From: a virus | Lineage: Duplodnaviria > Heunggongvirae > Uroviricota > Caudoviricetes | Reading direction: 5' to 3' (one strand) | DNA length: 14,469 bases | Virus record (IMG/VR): IMGVR_UViG_2563366931_000002 | Part shown: one piece after another, positions 4,622 to 13,241 of the stretch | Layout: each line of letters begins with the position of its first letter | Position numbering within the stretch: the first letter of the stretch is position 1 | The notes under the pieces: model-generated | The model's database searches: none | What the model saw: the letters and a program-made list of their open reading frames with translations, nothing else | Told to the model about the DNA's origin: nothing | Position numbers and translations under genes: made by a program

Positions 4622-7600
4622 ATGGGTAAAGGCAGCAGTAAGGGGCATACTCCGCGCGAAGCGAAGGACAACCTGAAGTCCACGCAGTTGCTGAGTGTGA
4701 TCGATGCCATCAGCGAAGGGCCGGTTGAAGGTCCGGTGGATGGATTAAAAAGCGTGCTGCTGAACAGTACGCCAGTGCTGGACAGTGAGGGGAATACCAA
4801 TATCTCCGGCGTCACGGTGGTGTTCCGGGCCGGTGAGCAGGAGCAGACACCGCCGGAGGGATTTGAATCCTCCGGCTCCGAGACGGTGCTGGGTACGGAA
4901 GTGAAATACGACACGCCGATCACCCGGACCATCACGTCGGCAAACATTGACCGACTGCGTTTTACCTTCGGCGTGCAGGCACTGGTGGAAACCACCTCAA
5001 AGGGGGACAGGAATCCGTCGGAAGTCCGCCTGCTGGTTCAGATCCAGCGTAATGGTGGCTGGGTGACGGAAAAAGACATCACCATTAAGGGCAAAACCAC
5101 CTCGCAGTATCTGGCCTCGGTGGTGGTGGGTAACCTGCCGCCGCGCCCGTTCAATATCCGGATGCGCAGGATGACGCCGGACAGCACCACAGACCAGCTG
5201 CAGAACAAAACGCTCTGGTCGTCATACACCGAAATCATCGATGTGAAACAGGGCTACCCGAACACGGCACTGGTCGGCGTGCAGGTGGATTCGGAGCAGT
5301 TCGGCAGCCAGCAGGTGAGCCGTAATTATCATCTGCGCGGGCGCATTCTGCAGGTGCCGTCGAACTATAACCCGCAGACGCGGCAATACAGCGGTATCTG
5401 GGACGGAACGTTTAAACCGGCATACAGCAACAACATGGCCTGGTGTCTGTGGGATATGCTGACCCATCCGCGCTACGGCATGGGGAAACGTCTTGGTGCG
5501 GCGGATGTGGATAAATGGGCGCTGTATGTCATCGGCCAGTACTGCGACCAGTCAGTGCCGGACGGCTTTGGCGGCACGGAGCCGCGCATCACCTGTAATG
5601 CGTACCTGACCACACAGCGCAAGGCGTGGGATGTGCTCAGTGATTTCTGCTCGGCGATGCGCTGTATGCCGGTATGGAACGGGCAGACGCTGACGTTCGT
5701 GCAGGACCGACCATCAGATAAGGTGTGGACCTATAACCGCAGTAATGTGGTGATGCCGGATGATGGCGCGCCGTTCCGCTACAGCTTCAGCGCCCTGAAG
5801 GACCGCCATAATGCCGTTGAGGTGAACTGGATTGACCCGAATAACGGCTGGGAGACGGCGACAGAGCTTGTGGAGGACACGCAGGCCATTGCCCGTTACG
5901 GTCGTAACGTCACGAAGATGGATGCCTTTGGCTGTACCAGCCGGGGGCAGGCACATCGCGCCGGGCTGTGGCTGATTAAAACAGAACTGCTGGAAACGCA
6001 GACCGTGGACTTCAGCGTGGGCGCAGAAGGGCTTCGCCATGTGCCGGGCGATGTCATTGAAATCTGTGATGATGACTATGCCGGTATCAGCATCGGCGGG
6101 CGCGTGCTGGCGGTAAACAGCCAGACCCGGACGCTGACGCTCGACCGTGAAATCACGCTGCCATCCTCCGGTACCACGCTGATAAGCCTGGTTGACGGAA
6201 GTGGCAATCCGGTCAGCGTGGAGGTTCAGTCCGTCACCGACGGCGTGAAGGTGAAAGTGAGCCGTGTTCCTGACGGCGTTGCTGAATACAGCGTGTGGGG
6301 GCTGAAGCTGCCGACGCTGCGCCAGCGCCTGTTCCGCTGCGTGAGTATCCGTGAGAACGACGACGGCACGTATGCCATCACCGCCGTGCAGCATGTACCG
6401 GAAAAAGAAGCCATCGTGGATAACGGGGCGCACTTTGACGGCGACCAGAGCGGCACGGTGAATGGTGTCACGCCGCCAGCGGTGCAGCACCTGACTGCCG
6501 AAGTCACCGCAGACAGCGGGGAATATCAGGTGCTGGCGCGCTGGGACACGCCGAAGGTGGTGAAGGGTGTGAGCTTTATGCTTCGCCTGACCGTAACAGC
6601 GGATGACGGCAGTGAGCGGCTGGTCAGCACGGCCCGGACGATGGAAACCACTTACCGCTTCACACAACTGGCGCTGGGGAACTACAGGCTGACAGTCCGG
6701 GCAGTAAATGCGTGGGGGCAGCAGGGCGATCCGGCGTCGGTATCGTTCCGGATTGCCGCACCGGCAGCGCCGTCGCGGATTGAGCTGACGCCGGGCTATT
6801 TTCAGATAACCGCCACGCCGCATCTTGCGGTTTATGATCCGACGGTACAGTTTGAGTTCTGGTTCTCGGAAAAGCGGATTGCGGATATCAGGCAGGTTGA
6901 AACCACAGCACGCTATCTTGGCACGGCGCTGTACTGGATAGCCGCCAGTATCAATATCAAACCGGGCCATGATTATTACTTTTATATCCGCAGTGTGAAC
7001 ACCGTTGGCAAATCGGCATTCGTGGAGGCTGTCGGTCAGCCGAGTGATGATGCATCAGGCTATCTGGATTTTTTCAAAGGAGAAATCGGGAAAACACATC
7101 TGGCCCAGGAGCTGTGGACGCAGATTGATAACGGTCAGCTTGCGCCTGACCTGGCTGAAATCAGGACGTCCATTACGGATGTCAGCAATGAAATCACACA
7201 GACCGTCAATAAGAAACTGGAAGACCAGAGTGCAGCGATCCAGCAGATACAGAAAGTTCAGGTTGATACAAATAATAACCTGAACAGCATGTGGGCTGTG
7301 AAGCTGCAGCAGATGCAGGACGGACGCCTTTATATTGCGGGTATCGGTGCCGGTATTGAGAACACCCCTGACGGCATGCAGAGTCAGGTGCTGCTGGCGG
7401 CAGACAGGATTGCGATGATTAATCCTGCGAATGGCAACACAAAACCGATGTTTGTTGGTCAGGGCGATCAGATATTCATGAACGACGTGTTCCTGAAACG
7501 CCTGACGGCCCCCACCATTACCAGCGGTGGAAATCCACCGGCATTTTCCCTGACACCGGACGGAAAGCTGACCGCTAAAAATGCGGATATCAGTGGCAGT

Positions 7601-8119
7601 GTGAATGCGAACGCCGGGACGCTCAACAATGTCACGGTAAATGAAAACTGTACGATTAAGGGCATGCTGGAGGCGACTCAGGTCAGAGGTGACTTCGTTA
7701 AAGCTGTATCCAAATCATTCCCGAAACAGGCTGGTACGTGGGGTAATACGGAAACACCAAACGGGACGGTTACAGTCACCATCAGCGATGATCATAACTT
7801 TGACCGTCAAATCATTATTCCGCCCATTATCTTTAACGGAATAGCGTATAGCGATCCGGGAAGTGGTAATAACCCGGGAGGTACAAGATACACGGGTTAT
7901 GGTTTTGAAGTTCGCAAAAACGGTGTATTAATCGCATCCAGAGAAACTAAAGGGGCCATTCCCGGTAGCTACAGTGCGGTTATTGATATGCCGAGTGGCA
8001 GGGGAAGCGTCACTCTGGAGTTTAAGATTTTCCAGAAAGGCAATCAGGGCGCAGGTAACATCACAGACTGTACGGTGATTGTGACCAAAAAAGCTGCTTC
8101 CGGTATCAGTATCCGTTGA
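4622..8119 (+). CDS. J: Host specificity protein J (central tail fibre / tail tip), lambda gpJ-like, 1165 aa
   Basis: Very long ORF downstream of I, with a GAGG Shine-Dalgarno 5 bp upstream. The N-terminus ([29 protein letters not shown]...) and most of the body match lambda gpJ as I recall it. It is about 30 codons longer than lambda J, and the 3' end drifts to lower GC. Confidence 0.92.
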
Positions 8120-8140
8120 AATATTTATAACCCCAATACG

Positions 8141-8164
8141 GGCGCCAGAAATGGCGCCTTTTTT
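8141..8164 (+). terminator. Rho-independent terminator downstream of J (GGCGCC-AGAAAT-GGCGCC stem-loop plus TTTTTT)
   Basis: Perfect 6-bp GC stem with a 6-nt loop at 8141..8158, immediately followed by a T6 run, 22 bp after the J stop and just before the fibre gene. Confidence 0.6.
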
Positions 8165-8179
8165 ATTTGTGGAGTGAGT

Positions 8180-10549
8180 ATGGCAGTACAGATTTCAGGT
8201 GTGCTGAAAGATGGTGCGGGAAAACCAATACAGAACTGCACTATTCAACTGAAGGCAAAGCGTAACAGCACCACGGTACTGGTGAACACGGTGGCCTCTG
8301 AAAATCCGGATGAAGCCGGGCGTTACAGCATGGATGTTGAGTATGGCCAGTACAGCGTTATCCTGCTTGTTGAAGGTTTTCCGCCTTCACATGCCGGAAC
8401 CATTACCGTCTATGAAGGTTCCAGACCAGGTACGCTGAATGATTTTCTCGGTGCCATGACGGAAGATGATGTCATGCCGGAAGCATTGCGTCGTTTTGAG
8501 GAAATGGTGGAAGAAGCGGCACGCAACGCCGAAGCCGCCTCTCAGAGCGCAGCGGCGGCAAAGAAATCCGAAACTGCAGCGGCATCATCGAAGAACGCGG
8601 CGAAAACCTCAGAAACGAATGCAGCTAATAGTGCACAGGCGGCAGCGACCTCAAAGACTGCATCGGCAAACTCCGCGACAGCAGCCAAAAAATCAGAAAC
8701 CAACGCGAAAAACAGCGAGACAGCCGCAAAGACGAGCGAAACCAACGCAAAGTCCAGCCAGACGGCAGCGAAAACCAGCGAAACGAATGCCAAAGCCAGT
8801 GAAACTGCGGCAAAAAACAGCCAGGTTGCAGCAGCCCAAAGCGAGAGCGCGGCAGCCGGTTCTGCGACTTCAGCAGCTGGATCAGCAACTGCTGCGGCTA
8901 ACAGCCAGAAAGCTGCGAAGACGAGTGAAACTAACGCAAAGTCCAGCCAGACGGCAGCGAAGACCAGCGAAACGAATGCCAAAGCCAGCGAAACTGCGGC
9001 GAAAAACAGCCAGGATGCAGCAGCCCAAAGCGAGAGTGCCGCAGCTGGTTCTGCAAGTGCGGCGGCTTCTTCTGCCACTGCATCAGCCAACAGTCAAAAA
9101 GCAGCAAAAACCAGTGAAACCAACACAAAGGCGAGCGAGACTGCGGCGACTAACTCGGCGAAAGCATCCGCTGCAAGCCAGATGGCTGCAAAAGCAAGTG
9201 AAGACGCAGCCAGGGAGTACGCAAGCCAGGCAGCTGAGCCGTATAAACAAGTTTTGCAGCCGTTGCCTGATGTGTGGATACCGTTTAATGACTCGATGGA
9301 TATGATTACAGGATTTGGCCCGGGATATAAAAAAATAACAGTGCGCGATGATGTGGTCACTATACCATCCGACAAAATTGTCCCGTTTTCCCGCGCGAGT
9401 TCCGCGACCTATATCAATAAGTCCGGCGCTCTTACCATTGCAGAAATTAATGAGCCACGTTTTGAAAAAGAAGGGCTGTTAATTGAAGGGCAGAGAACAA
9501 ATTACTTCACAAACTCAAACGCTCCGGAATTGTGGAATAAAAATCCAGGCCTGAAGATAAGCGAGACAAAAACCGATTCCAGGGGTTTTAAATATGCAAC
9601 GTTTACCCCAGAAAAATATTTAGATAGTTCTGGCTCATATGGAATTATATCAGGGGCAGCAGCAAATAAGATAGCGGTAGTCAAAAATGATGCAGTTACA
9701 ATATCCTTTAGAGCAAAAGGGGATAATGTAAGATTTGCGGCTAGATTTGATAAAGGGGATTCGCCAGTTGCTGTAGCTGCCATTTTTATTGATAGCGCCA
9801 CACTAGATACATTCACGTCTGGAGCAGATGCGTCTAATATTGCTGTGAAAAATGTTGTTCGTGACGGTGAGTGGGTTGCTGTAGAGGCTGTTTATAAAGT
9901 AACAGACGACTCTACATATATTAACGGCGCCATTCTGATGTCAAACAAACTGGGTGCTAATTTTGATAAGACTAGTTTTATGGATGTAACCACCCCTCAA
10001 ATAGAGCTAGGTTCTTGCTTATCATCATTTATTGTCACACCAGGTGTTCCTGCGACAAGGGCGAGTGATATGGTTATTTTTTCAACCAGAAATAACATAA
10101 GTTCTGTCCCTTTAAGCTGTCTTGTTGAAATACATAAAAATTGGGACTCTACGCCAAATCAGGCCCCACGAATTTTAACCACTATTGGCGTGGCGACTAA
10201 TGATGAACAACTGGTATTGGCTTTCAGGACGCCTACAAGTCCGGATGTAGAACCTTTACCTTATGTTCAGTTTGGAGTGAGATCTGCATATCTTAGTCCA
10301 TCTGTGAAGGCCGGGCGCAAAATGATTGCTGGTTTTGTCTGTAATAGCTCGACTGAATTTCGTTGCTGTTGTAATGGTTACCTGTCACCTGTTCAGACTT
10401 CGTCATGGAAGAATACCGGAGCTGCACATGAAATACGTATTGGGGGAACTTCTGCTGGAGGAGAACGTCACTTGTTTGGTCACGTTCGTAACCTGAGAAT
10501 ATGGCATAAAGAATTAACTGATGCGCAAATGGGGGAGAGTATTAAATGA
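8180..10549 (+). CDS. stf: Side tail fibre protein (Stf-like), mosaic: conserved lambda-Stf-like N-terminal domain, Ala/Ser/Thr-rich repeat shaft, low-GC C-terminal domain (possibly ConA/LamG-like lectin fold). The ORF track starts at GTG 8174; the ATG at 8180 with GGAG 5 bp upstream is the more likely start.
   Basis: The N-terminus from the ATG (MAVQISGVLKDGAGKPIQNCTIQLKAKRNSTTV...GRYSMDVEYGQYSVIL) closely resembles the lambda Stf N-terminus as I recall it. The central region has KTSETNAK / AAKNSQ repeats. The 3' half falls to roughly 40% GC. The C-terminal motif (HLFGHVRNLRIWHKELTDAQM) resembles the end of LamG-like jellyroll domains; this is inference. Confidence 0.8.
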   Translation: MAVQISGVLKDGAGKPIQNCTIQLKAKRNSTTVLVNTVASENPDEAGRYSMDVEYGQYSVILLVEGFPPSHAGTITVYEGSRPGTLNDFLGAMTEDDVMPEALRRFEEMVEEAARNAEAASQSAAAAKKSETAAASSKNAAKTSETNAANSAQAAATSKTASANSATAAKKSETNAKNSETAAKTSETNAKSSQTAAKTSETNAKASETAAKNSQVAAAQSESAAAGSATSAAGSATAAANSQKAAKTSETNAKSSQTAAKTSETNAKASETAAKNSQDAAAQSESAAAGSASAAASSATASANSQKAAKTSETNTKASETAATNSAKASAASQMAAKASEDAAREYASQAAEPYKQVLQPLPDVWIPFNDSMDMITGFGPGYKKITVRDDVVTIPSDKIVPFSRASSATYINKSGALTIAEINEPRFEKEGLLIEGQRTNYFTNSNAPELWNKNPGLKISETKTDSRGFKYATFTPEKYLDSSGSYGIISGAAANKIAVVKNDAVTISFRAKGDNVRFAARFDKGDSPVAVAAIFIDSATLDTFTSGADASNIAVKNVVRDGEWVAVEAVYKVTDDSTYINGAILMSNKLGANFDKTSFMDVTTPQIELGSCLSSFIVTPGVPATRASDMVIFSTRNNISSVPLSCLVEIHKNWDSTPNQAPRILTTIGVATNDEQLVLAFRTPTSPDVEPLPYVQFGVRSAYLSPSVKAGRKMIAGFVCNSSTEFRCCCNGYLSPVQTSSWKNTGAAHEIRIGGTSAGGERHLFGHVRNLRIWHKELTDAQMGESIK
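8727..8865 (+). repeat. Intragenic direct repeat copy A (139 bp) within the fibre shaft; repeat period 189 bp (63 codons)
   Basis: Aligned by eye to 8916..9054 with about 10 mismatches in 139 bp. It encodes AKTSETNAKSSQTAAKTSETNAKASETAAKNSQ.AAAQSESAAAGSA. Confidence 0.85.
8916..9054 (+). repeat. Intragenic direct repeat copy B (139 bp) within the fibre shaft; more diverged partial copies flank it
   Basis: Near-identical to 8727..8865 at nucleotide level. Flanking sequence (about 8560..8726 and 9055..9180) contains degenerate versions of the same unit. Confidence 0.85.
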
Positions 10550-10827
10550 AAGATTTAACACTCAAATTTGCAGACAGGGCCGACTTTTCGGCCTTTATGG
10601 AGAGCATTGGCTATTATGATGACGAGTTGATGCAGGATGATATTCTTATTGACGTGATAGGTAACGTGTACAAAGAAACCGGAGAACTGACTGAAGATGG
10701 CGAACCGGTATGTGTTAAGGAAGACGGATATTTTGTAAACGTGCGCATCATTAATGATGCAAAAAAATCGTCAATATTCGATGAATACGCGGTTGTTGTT
10801 GAACATCAACTTCGTGGCTGGATGTGA
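10546..10827 (+). CDS. Hypothetical small acidic protein (93 aa), translationally coupled to the fibre gene; function unknown
   Basis: The ATG overlaps the fibre stop (ATGA) and has a GGGGGAG Shine-Dalgarno-like sequence about 8 bp upstream. Low GC like the fibre 3' half. No motif I recognise. Confidence 0.5.
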   Translation: MKDLTLKFADRADFSAFMESIGYYDDELMQDDILIDVIGNVYKETGELTEDGEPVCVKEDGYFVNVRIINDAKKSSIFDEYAVVVEHQLRGWM

Positions 10828-10836
10828 GGGAGACAA

Positions 10837-11541
10837 ATGGCTACATCGACAGTAATTCCGGGAGACATCACCACGCTGAAGGGAGATGTCAGTAAAGCGA
10901 AGGAAGATATTTCCTCAATTAACAGTAAAGTATCAACGCTTCAGACTGATATGACCAGTGCAAAGCAGGATATCAGCTCCAGATACACAAAAACTGAAGT
11001 TGATAATAAGCTGAAAAACAAAGTGGAAGTGAACGATCTGGAAAGTGGTCGTTATGGCGGAGATTTTTATCCACTGACAGGTCGTGAAGCGTTTTATTTA
11101 TGGAATTTGGCCACGACTACAGCGGCGGCAAACCTTTATCTTAATCCTGACCCTGCAATTTCGTCTGTACTGCGGTCAACATCGTCTATCCGCTATAAGC
11201 ATTCAGTAGAGACGATAGATTCAGAGCACGCCGATCTCATTTTCAGGATGCGCCCTGTATGGTACAGGTCACAATGCGAAAATGACAGGCGTGACTGGGG
11301 ATTCTACGGATTGATTGCCGAGGAAGTAGGAGAAATTGCCCCTCAGTTTGTACACTGGCGATCAGCTAACGAAGATGATGCACGGGAAGCTATTTCCAGC
11401 AATGGCCTTGTTGCCGAAGGTGTAATGTACGAACGTCTGGTTGTTCCACTGATTCACCATATCCAGAAACTGACCGAAAGAGTTGATGAACTTGAGTCAG
11501 AATTGAAGTTGTTATCAACTTCCCGAAGCGATATCGGATAA
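10837..11541 (+). CDS. Short tail-fibre-like protein: N-terminal coiled coil plus C-terminal intramolecular-chaperone (peptidase S74-like) domain, 234 aa
   Basis: GAGGGAG Shine-Dalgarno upstream of the ATG. The N-terminal roughly 70 aa have heptad-like Ser/Thr/Lys/Asp periodicity. The C-terminus carries motifs typical of fibre/endosialidase C-terminal chaperone domains: SSIRYKHSVETID (Ser-x4-Lys), MRPVWYR, GLIAEEVGEIAPQFV, GVMYERLVVPLIHHIQKLTERVDELE. Confidence 0.7.
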   Translation: MATSTVIPGDITTLKGDVSKAKEDISSINSKVSTLQTDMTSAKQDISSRYTKTEVDNKLKNKVEVNDLESGRYGGDFYPLTGREAFYLWNLATTTAAANLYLNPDPAISSVLRSTSSIRYKHSVETIDSEHADLIFRMRPVWYRSQCENDRRDWGFYGLIAEEVGEIAPQFVHWRSANEDDAREAISSNGLVAEGVMYERLVVPLIHHIQKLTERVDELESELKLLSTSRSDIG

Positions 11542-11551
11542 AGGAGGAGTA

Positions 11552-11845
11552 ATGGATATAACACCTTTTCTTCATGCGCTTTGTGCTGTGGCTGCGCAGG
11601 TACTGATTGGTCTTTTTACCGGAAACTGGGTTTACGGGGCGATAGCCGGTTGTACGTTCTTCATTGCGCGTGAACACACCCAGGCAGAATATCGCTGGAT
11701 TGAAATGTTCGGGCATGGCAAGCGAATGAATATGCCGTGGTGGGGCGGTTTTGATTCGCGCGCATGGGATGTGGCAAGCCTGATGGATTTTGCTGTGCCG
11801 GTGGTGGCGTGTCTGCTGGTCTGGCTGTTGGTTAATCGTGGGTGA
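11552..11845 (+). CDS. Hypothetical small membrane protein (97 aa, 2-3 predicted transmembrane helices), last gene of the co-directional tail-region cluster
   Basis: Strong AGGAGG Shine-Dalgarno 6 bp upstream of the ATG. Hydrophobic stretches FLHALCAVAAQVLIGLF, VYGAIAGCTFFIA and LMDFAVPVVACLLVWLLV. No family recognised. Confidence 0.55.
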   Translation: MDITPFLHALCAVAAQVLIGLFTGNWVYGAIAGCTFFIAREHTQAEYRWIEMFGHGKRMNMPWWGGFDSRAWDVASLMDFAVPVVACLLVWLLVNRG

Positions 11846-12046
11846 AAAAAGGTGAGCTGTATATGCAACGGAGGAAGAAAGATCGTTGCTGGAAGCCTGA
11901 AAAAAGTATCGGGTGCTGCTAAACCGTGTGGACACTTCCGTAGCACCAGATATCGAGTGGCTTATTCAACCATAATAAACAGTATGTATATCATAGGTTA
12001 TTAATTGTGAGTTTTTTCGGTGTGTTATTTGTTTGTTTGATGTTAT

Positions 12047-12062
12047 GGAAGGTGCGAATAAG
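12047..12062. repeat. IS5 terminal inverted repeat (transposase-distal end)
   Basis: GGAAGGTGCGAATAAG read directly; matches the 13226..13241 reverse complement at 15 of 16 positions. Confidence 0.9.
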
Positions 12063-12192
12063 CGGGGAAATTCTTCTCGGCTGACTCAGTCATTTCATTT
12101 CTTCATGTTTGAGCCGATTTTTTCTCCCGTAAATGCCTTGAATCAGCCTATTTAGACCGTTTCTTCGCCATTTAAGGCGTTATCCCCAGTTT

Positions 12193-13218
<1,026 letters not shown>

Positions 13219-13225
13219 TCAGGGA

Positions 13226-13241
13226 CTTGTTCGCACCTTCC
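13226..13241. repeat. IS5 terminal inverted repeat (transposase-proximal end)
   Basis: CTTGTTCGCACCTTCC read directly; reverse complement GGAAGGTGCGAACAAG. Confidence 0.9.

Follow-up and report, generated by a model that had tools for sequence, protein, structure and literature searches.

Two small genes behind a prophage side tail fibre gene probably complete the fibre, and a third encodes a separate inner-membrane protein

What do three small genes without a named function do when they lie between a side tail fibre gene and the end of a prophage? This question is raised by a 14,469-nucleotide (nt) stretch of DNA from IMG/VR virus record IMGVR_UViG_2563366931_000002 (Caudoviricetes), here called the window, which holds the distal half of a lambda-type tail operon from an E. 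coli prophage at the DLP12 site. Directly 3′ of its fibre gene stf are three open reading frames (ORFs) that we call ORF93, ORF234 and ORF97 after their lengths in amino acids (aa). An earlier note, made from the letters alone, had read the trio as one low-GC cassette at a hotspot for accessory cargo. Our analysis indicates that the trio is probably two different things: the first two genes complete the side tail fibre, the third stands on its own, and neither part is a defence system. The features on which this reading rests are the following.

8180..10549, + strand: Stf, the proximal side tail fibre (Pfam, NCBIfam, PHROG and hidden Markov model (HMM) matches)
10546..10827, + strand: ORF93, a small acidic alpha+beta protein (phrog_1361; AlphaFold 2 (AF2) model)
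10837..11541, + strand: ORF234, a putative short distal fibre subunit (PF13884; phrog_3299; N-terminal motif)
10837-10896, + strand: N-terminal motif of ORF234, MATSTVIPxDIxxLK, common to second-fibre proteins
11182-11541, + strand: C-terminal S74 intramolecular chaperone of ORF234 (Pfam PF13884; S116-x4-K121)
11552..11845, + strand: ORF97, a predicted three-helix inner-membrane protein of PHROG 1443 (phrog_1443; AF2 model)

On the anatomy of the trio, we found that the earlier note holds up well. The three ORFs stand where it placed them and the spacing is tight: the ATG of ORF93 overlaps the stop codon of the fibre gene (ATGA), 9 nt separate ORF93 from ORF234 and 10 nt separate ORF234 from ORF97, and each start is preceded by a Shine-Dalgarno-like sequence (GGGGAGAG for ORF93, GAGGGAG for ORF234 and AAGGAGG for ORF97). 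The low GC is shared by the 3′ half of the fibre gene (0.419), ORF93 (0.408) and ORF234 (0.448), as compared to 0.555-0.597 from H to J. ORF93 is acidic (isoelectric point 4.19; 21 D+E versus 9 K+R), ORF234 is coiled-coil-like at its ends and scores above the Pfam cut-off for Peptidase_S74, and ORF97 is a membrane-type protein (grand average of hydropathy 0.56, three predicted helices). Apart from the S74 domain, Pfam and NCBIfam give no function-defined family for any of the three. PHROG matches are strong throughout (phrog_1361 at E 2e-46 for ORF93, phrog_3299 at E 2e-138 for ORF234 and phrog_1443 at E 4e-58 for ORF97), and hundreds of RefSeq E. coli genomes annotate the identical stretch as three coding sequences; because of these matches and annotations, the ORFs are real genes and not chance. 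We found no treatment of them in the literature on IdasGreatGrand, PhiR49_1, phage 21 with sitABCD and the ECOR13 prophages, and the Gifsy-1 Stf paper and the LF82 CRISPR interference preprint are silent on them.

Stf has a lambda-Stf-type N-terminus (Pfam phage_tail_N, E 2e-67), an Ala/Ser-rich, repeated shaft (direct repeats 8711-8960 and 8900-9149, 84% identity) and, at about 9287-10543, a lectin-like C-terminal module of ~420 aa (LamG/galectin-type, with a concanavalin/LamG signature). It matches Pfam Laminin_G_3, an NCBIfam "GTA head spike fibre" domain and, over its full length, phrog_1419, and Pfam finds no S74 domain in it. We compared nine loci of six lineages with HMMs that we built for this C-terminal module and for the ORF93 family. 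In all nine, we found the same fibre C-terminal module with an adjoining ORF93-family gene, and the module closes with ...GERHLFGH(V/I)RN(F/L)RIWHK.LTD.Q (in the window, where the module scores E 2e-209, it ends IRIGGTSAGGERHLFGHVRNLRIWHKELTDAQ). The order lectin-type fibre, ~92-aa protein and protein beginning M(A/V)T.T.IP.DI..LK is found in the lambdoid phages PhiR49_1 and 2G7b, in Nonagvirus ESCO3, in T1-like KarlJaspers, in T5-like IrisVonRoten (gp22-gp23-gp24) and in Dhillonvirus KarlBarth, and an S74 domain closes the last protein of the block in each of these except KarlBarth. In rV5-like naswa, the fibre and the small protein are present. The 4-nt overlap and ~10-nt gap of the window are reproduced in IrisVonRoten and have near-equivalents in ESCO3, 2G7b and KarlBarth.

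We also compared the 80 closest IMG/VR prophage loci. An ORF93-family gene follows the lectin-type fibre gene in 79 of the 80; 69 loci have the full order lectin-fibre, ORF93, S74 gene and ORF97, with S74 alleles of 227/234 aa or ~346 aa, and 10 have lectin-fibre, ORF93 and ORF97 with no S74 gene between them, as do phage 21 and PhiR40_1. Because S74 alleles vary or vanish between constant flanks, the middle gene is an exchangeable part. The homology, gene order, motifs and allele swapping of the module are direct observations, and ORF93 and ORF234 appear to be side-tail-fibre module components of a known kind, the two-part lateral fibre with an S74 chaperone. Genes now called "hypothetical" in complete E. 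coli genomes, several hundred to a few thousand of them, can be labelled accordingly, and for host-range engineering the locus offers a natural plug-in point, with a distal S74 gene of 234 aa, ~346 aa or none at all between the same flanks.

These comparisons bear directly on the idea that the trio forms one accessory cassette, be it a moron, a superinfection-exclusion locus or an anti-phage defence, at a hotspot between the fibre and the prophage end. Such a cassette would account for the low GC of the first two genes, for their site near the prophage end and for the lack of a named Pfam or NCBIfam function in all three. In contrast, virulent phages, in which there is no lysogenic cargo, also have ORF93 and ORF234 with this fibre gene, and the low GC, being common to the fibre 3′ half, marks an exchangeable receptor-binding module and not cargo. 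The earlier note had said that structural homology of all three proteins in conserved synteny would count against its cassette, and this is what we found for ORF93 and ORF234, a standard fibre module in virulent phages too; it had also proposed comparing neighbourhoods across related prophages, where the S74 gene swaps or drops out and the trio does not travel as one unit. No promoter-like site lies inside or before the trio, and the suspected defence cargo drew no support from PADLOC-DB 2.0, which gives zero families for ORF93, ORF234 and ORF97 (E <= 0.1); the sole PADLOC match in the region is the fibre itself (LmuB, E 0.087, non-significant). We consider a single cassette extremely improbable. 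The moron zone, which the earlier note had placed between the fibre genes and the prophage end, begins after ORF97 in related phages (ybcY, hydrolase, ompT, sitABCD), and searches for prophage cargo or defence should begin downstream of ORF97, not of the fibre gene. The expectation of undescribed biology in the trio survives for ORF97 but not for ORF93 and ORF234, which are parts of the fibre module.

ORF93 homologues occur in 183 phage records (tblastn), directly after the lateral fibre gene in the rows listed, and these records include T1-like, T5-like, Nonagvirus/Seuratvirus, Dhillonvirus and rV5-like virulent phages. Because 10 of the 80 prophage loci keep the fibre and ORF93 without an S74 gene, ORF93 goes with the fibre C-terminal module; it appears to be an obligate downstream partner of the lectin-type module that is not tied to the S74 gene. 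Its AF2 model (mean predicted local distance difference test score, pLDDT, 82.7) has a small alpha+beta fold, for which fold comparison gave no informative neighbour and nothing related. ORF93 is probably an assembly factor, connector or cap: it would help fold or cap the Stf lectin module, in the place held by Tfa in lambda-type fibres, and the overlap of its start with the Stf stop would fit translational coupling. Compared with lambda Stf/Tfa, the window is alike in its phage_tail_N N-terminal domain, in the position of stf after J and in a tfa remnant (11865-11975) that persists downstream; it differs in that the lectin-type module takes the place of the distal half of Stf and in that ORF93, although it holds the Tfa position, is not a member of Caudo_TAP (the lambda/Mu/P2-type assembly proteins) and has no Pfam or NCBIfam match at E <= 0.1. 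ORF93 may be Tfa-like in its working, though not as a family member. We also considered as an ORF93 relative the 174-aa gene before the ORF97 homologue of L164, a metagenomic prophage; our ORF93 HMM does not detect it, and both proteins match phrog_18574, a link that is only indirect.

In ORF234, PF13884 covers residues 116-172 (profile positions 1-57/58; 27.5 bits versus a cut-off of 22; E 3.9e-6), the S74 region as a whole runs from residue 116 to the C-terminal end at residue 234, and residues 1-70 are coiled-coil-like. The region opens with SSIRYK from residue 116, which gives S116 and K121 a dyad spacing that recurs as S-x4-K in 2G7b gp24, ESCO3_80, KarlJaspers_35 and IrisVonRoten gp24 and that we take to be the catalytic dyad arrangement known from endosialidase and T5 pb1. 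As far as membership can be judged from sequence, ORF234 belongs to the S74 family, in which the chaperone drives trimer folding and then cuts itself off. Like endosialidase and pb1 of the T5 L-shaped fibre, ORF234 has a C-terminal S74 domain that opens with the Ser-x4-Lys dyad, and a terminal coiled coil; unlike them, it carries S74 on a very short polypeptide with its own gene, and its cleavage is a prediction.

At the other end of the protein, the first 15-20 residues of ORF234 (MATSTVIPGDITTLK) are common to the same-position proteins of other phages, which measure 345-351 aa in 2G7b and ESCO3, about 220 aa in KarlJaspers, 98 aa in KarlBarth and 574 aa in IrisVonRoten (gp24). About 45 virulent Drexlerviridae have, immediately behind their ORF93 homologue, a full-length ORF234 homologue of 200-225 aa with ~58% identity. 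Over its full length, ORF234 matches the final 238 of the 1385 positions of fibre family phrog_3299, and because of this C-terminal alignment we conclude that ORF234-like sequence forms the distal end of single-chain fibres elsewhere. ORF234 thus looks like a short distal fibre piece built of an N-terminal motif, a coiled coil, a small tip and a C-terminal S74 chaperone, and it probably forms a trimer. The chaperone would drive trimer folding and then self-cleave at Ser116, which would leave about 115 ORF234 residues on the virion, presumably attached to the fibre.

Two points weigh against this picture. There is almost no receptor-binding domain in ORF234 between the coiled coil and the chaperone (only about 45 residues separate the coiled coil from the cleavage site), and BASEL labels short S74 proteins, including the KarlJaspers and PeterMerian homologues, "putative lateral tail fiber chaperone" and not fibre. 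Both would be expected if ORF234 were a trans-acting assembly chaperone for Stf that is discarded after folding, as would the facts that S74 is the sole recognisable domain of ORF234 and that Stf itself has none. However, phage 21, PhiR40_1 and the 10 prophage loci have the same fibre type and ORF93 with no S74 gene, and because this combination exists, the fibre does not need ORF234. The N-terminal motif is moreover common to distal fibres with receptor-binding domains (IrisVonRoten gp24, 574 aa; 2G7b gp24, 345 aa), and ORF234 aligns in cis to the distal end of a single-chain family. The S74 domains of endosialidase and T5 pb1 also act in cis, on their own polypeptide. A discarded trans-acting chaperone seems to us rather unlikely, and we favour a distal fibre piece.

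Known systems resemble this module to different degrees. The BASEL model of IrisVonRoten (Bas32) shows gp24 as a distal fibre that carries an intramolecular chaperone and sits on a galectin-bearing long proximal fibre, its attachment being an AlphaFold-Multimer prediction by the same authors (PMC11990801). The window shares with this phage the gene order and its overlap and gap, the lectin-type C-terminal module of the first gene, an ORF93 homologue (gp23, 92 aa, 38% identity) and the ORF234 N-terminal motif and S74 end of gp24. In contrast to ORF234, a 234-aa stub, gp24 has two receptor-binding domains in its 574 aa, and IrisVonRoten is virulent, lacks ORF97 and docks its proximal fibre to a T5-type collar instead of a lambda-type tail tip. 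The Drexlerviridae lateral fibre locus, as in KarlJaspers (bas06_0037/0036/0035), holds the closest full-length ORF234 relatives (~58% identity), which stand behind a lectin-type fibre gene and an ORF93 homologue, but it is virulent, has no ORF97, has a T1-type fibre N-terminus and labels its S74 protein a putative chaperone. The branched LtfA/LtfB fibres of DT57C are alike in concept, in that the second fibre protein is attached via the first and not to the tail (PMC4728585, PMC10713586); they differ in that no small intervening gene is listed, gp107-gp109 being contiguous. In phage 21, CPT_21_23 ("hypothetical protein") is the ORF93 homologue (53% identity) and CPT_21_24 ("putative membrane protein") the ORF97 homologue (94%), after a lectin-type Stf; unlike the window, phage 21 has no S74 gene between the two, and sitABCD cargo follows.

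ORF97 is separable from the fibre genes. Its GC of 0.527 differs from the 0.408 and 0.448 of the genes upstream and the 0.406 downstream, and because of this difference from its low-GC neighbours it is set apart as an independent gene. The AF2 model (pLDDT 91.6) has helices at 4-23, 26-52 and 74-96. In the loop at 40-73 there are 5.5 K+R per protein as compared to about 0 elsewhere; because of the positive-inside rule, this Arg/Lys-rich polar loop is predicted to face the cytoplasm. A 30-member alignment that reaches from Gamma- to Betaproteobacteria has 25 invariant positions, mostly in AREHTQAEYRWI...G.GKR.NMPWWGGFD.R.W, plus D2, H8, Q16 and D79; His, Glu and Asp are among the invariant residues and Cys is near-invariant. 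A deep profile search of 1.8 billion proteins returned 432 cluster representatives, and among the 150 representatives listed, all of 58-146 aa, there were no domain fusions. For the 30 alignment members, Pfam at E <= 10 gave non-significant matches only (PhoR in 5/30 at E 0.1, Phage_holin_8 in 1/30 at E 0.04), and a profile search of PDB sequences found nothing. We rejected ORF97 as a lipoprotein, for which it has a lipobox-like IAGC34: the Cys is replaced in 2/30 members, the hydrophobic stretch before it runs to 30 residues and lacks a basic n-region, and residues 26-52 form one continuous helix in the AF2 model.

We found ORF97 in 1900 of 5426 complete E. coli genomes (35%), at 1-7 copies per genome (median 2) and always annotated as hypothetical. 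Lambdoid phages that differ in the genes around it still have 93-97% identity in ORF97. Homologues with 55-65% identity occur in Leclercia, Pantoea, Aeromonas and Comamonas (60% between Escherichia and Comamonas, far above the conservation of neighbouring genes), and those with 40-58% identity in sphingomonads, other Alphaproteobacteria and Desulfovibrio. Few unannotated prophage genes are as common in E. coli as ORF97, whose conservation crosses the boundaries of proteobacterial classes and whose model is a confident one.

The contexts of ORF97 are varied; neighbours in GTDB loci were counted only if confirmed by Pfam/PHROG or by the collection's own gene calls. In E. coli lambdoid phages, ORF97 closes the fibre block. 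In the P22-like Gally and 611R6, it lies between the tailspike gene (in 611R6 also an O-acetylase) and int. Overlaps with the gene before it are seen in P2-like Aeromonas prophages, with the stop codon of an S74-ended fibre gene, and in phiHAP-1, with tfa, where the sheath gene comes next. Comamonas and Acidovorax prophages carry it a short way 3′ of J-like proteins with one small gene between, and L164 carries it after a lectin-type fibre module and the phrog_18574 protein. Fragments of S74 genes move with it, namely 75 nt of the ORF234 3′ end in Gally and a 37-codon fibre fragment in 611R6. The virulent Escherichia phage HC6 (L171 3462-3621) holds an unannotated, decayed ORF97-family remnant, a 51-codon ORF that retains IPWWGGFDWRAWD, directly after a tailspike with an S74-chaperone-like C-terminus. 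ORF97 is present in 4/4 temperate lambdoid phages with the fibre block and, in the regions compared, in 0/5 virulent phages with the same block; the temperate bias and the linkage to receptor genes rest on these samples. Judged from gene neighbourhoods, ORF97 travels in temperate phages alongside the 3′ ends of genes for receptor-binding proteins.

ORF97-family genes are also found at chromosomal sites that appear not to belong to prophages: after pirin in four Aeromonas species (L101, L105, L107, L112), after ligA (NAD-dependent DNA ligase) in a Sphingomonas genome and a related metagenome-assembled genome (MAG) (L157, L160), and after pnp (PNPase) in an alphaproteobacterial MAG (L138), the MAGs in question being alphaproteobacterial or unclassified Pseudomonadota. 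The family is therefore not purely viral.

We scanned the region for regulatory sites and drew on published expression tables for strain LF82. One candidate feature stands between J and the fibre gene.

8140..8159, + strand: intrinsic-terminator-like hairpin between J and the fibre gene (8-bp stem, 6 GC pairs, T-run)

Phage 21 has a terminator annotated at the same place, and the hairpin would set off stf-ORF93-ORF234-ORF97 as a sub-unit of the late operon. A consensus scan of the + strand from 8000 to 12300 found no sigma-70-like sites, and after ORF97 there is no convincing terminator. In LF82, three prophages carry ORF97 homologues (Perceval, Tritos and Gally); the moron screen of this strain lists none of them and reports Gally to be without morons (PMC9928086). 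In Perceval in LB medium, normalised counts are 6.7 for the fibre, 14.5 for the 92-aa gene and 11.5 for the 97-aa gene, as compared to 32 for SitD, which is listed at 5-fold above background (PMC9928086). The 97-aa gene, PERCE_24, stands at 11.5 against a background of about 6.5, and its Gally counterpart GALLYPH_17 at 18.3 against a median of 15.6, where the moron cut-off is 5-fold (PMC9928086); in LB, in this one strain, the two homologues are thus at 1.2-1.8x prophage background. The Gally homologue tracks the tailspike, at 1.2x background (PMC9928086). In a comparison that we read as macrophage versus in-vitro growth, Perceval log2 fold changes are 4.85 for the fibre, 3.73 for the 92-aa gene, 3.0 for the 97-aa gene and 2.05 for J; the three fibre-block genes are all marked as increased, and lom falls (PMC9928086, S1/S4 tables).

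Because the homologues co-vary with fibre and tailspike genes, ORF97 behaves in LF82 as part of the fibre transcription unit and not as a moron. A moron would have its own promoter and terminator, expression in the lysogen well above background and a base composition unlike that of its neighbours. We found the last of these (GC 0.527); ORF97 lies 10 nt from ORF234 with no sigma-70-like site in the consensus scan, and its LF82 homologues are not well above background in LB. The hairpin after J, together with fibre-block fold changes above that of J in LF82, may point to a promoter that the fibre block has to itself and that responds to growth conditions.

What, then, might ORF97 do? Our best guess, ranked first but held at somewhat short of an even chance, is an envelope-directed role, entry block included: from the inner membrane, ORF97 would act on the host envelope, perhaps by masking or altering a receptor or a glycan precursor or by closing an entry route. 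Next in our ranking comes a hitch-hiking host gene, then a part in lysis timing, and last a role in fibre assembly, which we rate as very improbable; none of these fits every observation. An envelope role might be comparable in purpose to the functions of Cor, Llp and Gtr, without membership of those families. Like Cor (T1, phi80), Llp (T5), gtrABC/oafA (P22-like) and fun(Z) (P2), ORF97 stands at the end of a fibre or tailspike module, and it occupies conversion loci, the P22-like tailspike-int interval and a fun(Z)-like slot in phiHAP-1. Unlike them, it has no sequence or fold relation to these proteins, is neither a lipoprotein nor a glycosyl- or acyl-transferase, is not receptor-specific and is not lysogen-expressed in LF82. 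Four observations weigh against an envelope role: extreme conservation beside variable receptor-binding proteins does not suit receptor-specific masking, 1-7 copies per E. coli genome do not suit a general block to ORF97-carrying phages, near-background expression in LB lysogens does not suit classical lysogenic conversion, and there are homologues at non-phage chromosomal sites, because of which a general cellular role of the family is suggested.

A narrower form of entry block is that ORF97 is a superinfection-exclusion protein of the T4 Imm or HK97 gp15 type, which blocks genome entry at the inner membrane. A small inner-membrane protein beside receptor-binding genes would suit this, as would its presence at classical conversion loci (the P22-like tailspike-int interval and the P2 fun(Z)-like position in phiHAP-1) and in temperate phages, with absence or decay in virulent relatives. 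However, expression in the LF82 lysogen is about 1-2x prophage background and tracks late genes, up to 7 copies sit on co-resident prophages of one E. coli genome, ORF97 is far more conserved than its neighbours over the distance from Escherichia to Comamonas, homologues occupy core chromosomal sites, and PADLOC has no match. Superinfection exclusion of this type is, in our estimate, quite unlikely.

ORF97 could instead be a captured bacterial membrane protein with a housekeeping or stress function (metal or membrane homeostasis, for example), which would benefit the host cell, play no part in phage infection and hitch-hike with the conserved 3′ ends of fibre genes. The sites after pirin, ligA and pnp fit this, as do the invariant His, Glu and Asp and the near-invariant Cys, the movement with S74-gene 3′ fragments (Gally 75 nt, 611R6 37 codons, the decayed remnant in HC6) and the 8-fold rise in macrophages in LF82. 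In contrast, expression in LB lysogens is near background, the gene overlaps or closely abuts the fibre gene in several lineages, and strong purifying selection inside phage genomes points to a benefit to the phage itself. We consider a captured housekeeping gene unlikely, and we keep an envelope-directed role ahead of it.

A lysis-related membrane protein (holin, antiholin or lysis-timing factor) is suggested by the size of about 100 aa with three transmembrane helices, as in class I holins, by co-expression with late genes, by one weak Phage_holin_8 match in a family member (E 0.04) and by the L164 homologue, which lies immediately 5′ of two holin-like genes, a GH108 endolysin and spanins, with a similar setting in L011. 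However, ORF97 lacks a charged C-terminal tail (its C-terminus lies 2-3 residues past helix 3, with 0.8 K+R), its polar loop is invariant, unlike the poorly conserved holins, and in E. coli lambdoid and P22-like phages a long distance separates it from the lysis cassette, which is already complete in those prophages; homologues also occur at the non-phage chromosomal sites. When we compared ORF97 with class I holins, we found no endolysin in the window, and lysis-cassette adjacency in L164 and L011 only. We regard a lysis function as improbable, and the envelope remains our preferred site of action.

At its boldest, the envelope reading would make ORF97 the founder of a new class of phage-borne inner-membrane effectors that bind or modify a universal envelope component, which we think unlikely but worth spelling out. 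If true, a ~97-residue three-helix effector with an invariant, cytoplasm-facing His/Glu/Asp/Arg pocket would be carried by temperate phages of all three tail types, next to their receptor-binding genes. Its target could be a polyprenyl-phosphate-linked glycan precursor or a conserved inner-membrane entry factor, for example; receptor display would be changed or genome entry blocked. The relatives on bacterial chromosomes would then carry out that reaction in its ancestral, cellular form. ORF97 is the part of the locus that is worth an experiment.

In L164 (7296-9190), a full lysis cassette (two holin-like proteins, GH108 endolysin, i- and o-spanins) stands right after the ORF97 homologue, and tail-fibre and lysis modules abut. 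In L011 (Comamonas), two similar holin-like genes and then a 183-aa gene are found at 7300-8521.

The rest of the window gives the setting of the fibre module.

J at 4622-8119: last of the tail operon genes before the fibre gene, which are tape-measure (partial), M, L, K, I and J
11865..11975, + strand: tfa remnant, a lambda-type tail fibre assembly pseudogene (PGAP annotation of strain 118UI, mapped by offset)
12048..13241, - strand: IS5 insertion (transposase 12193-13209; Pfam DDE_Tnp_1 and DUF772)

In order, the side tail fibre gene, the three small ORFs, the tfa remnant, IS5 and appY lie 3′ of J. Strain 118UI and many other RefSeq genomes have the identical stretch, followed by appY-ompT-envY, and the Prokaryotic Genome Annotation Pipeline (PGAP) flags the identical tfa sequence in 118UI as incomplete with an internal stop. 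Because this tfa leftover persists downstream of ORF97, the arrangement suggests that the lectin-type module and its partners replaced an older Stf/Tfa distal end. The IS5 copy sits between the tfa remnant or prophage end and appY, outside the fibre module; this ~1.19 kb stretch is present in the window and absent from the otherwise collinear 118UI.

We also looked at the further ORFs of the region. The antisense or overlapping ORFs at 11390-11935 and 11632-11946 and the small ORF at 11852-12004 have no family match and were treated as non-coding, the annotated tfa remnant excepted, and RNA-family and tRNA scans found none present in the region. Inside the Stf shaft, there are long alternative-frame and antisense ORFs (8466-9305 on the + strand, 8542-9090 on the - strand, and neighbours); because they coincide with the Ala/Ser-rich direct repeats and an extreme AT skew, they look like composition artefacts.

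In the plaque-forming lambdoid phages PhiR49_1 and 2G7b, the ORF97 gene is followed by ybcY, tfa fragments, an alpha/beta hydrolase and ompT (L002 9538-13369, L003 7943-11774), the same cargo as at the DLP12 end in E. coli chromosomes. In the window, J is intact (1165 aa), whereas J of strain 118UI is annotated as frameshifted (window 4622-8119 versus L001 6224-9720), and because of this difference the window prophage may be less decayed than that of 118UI.

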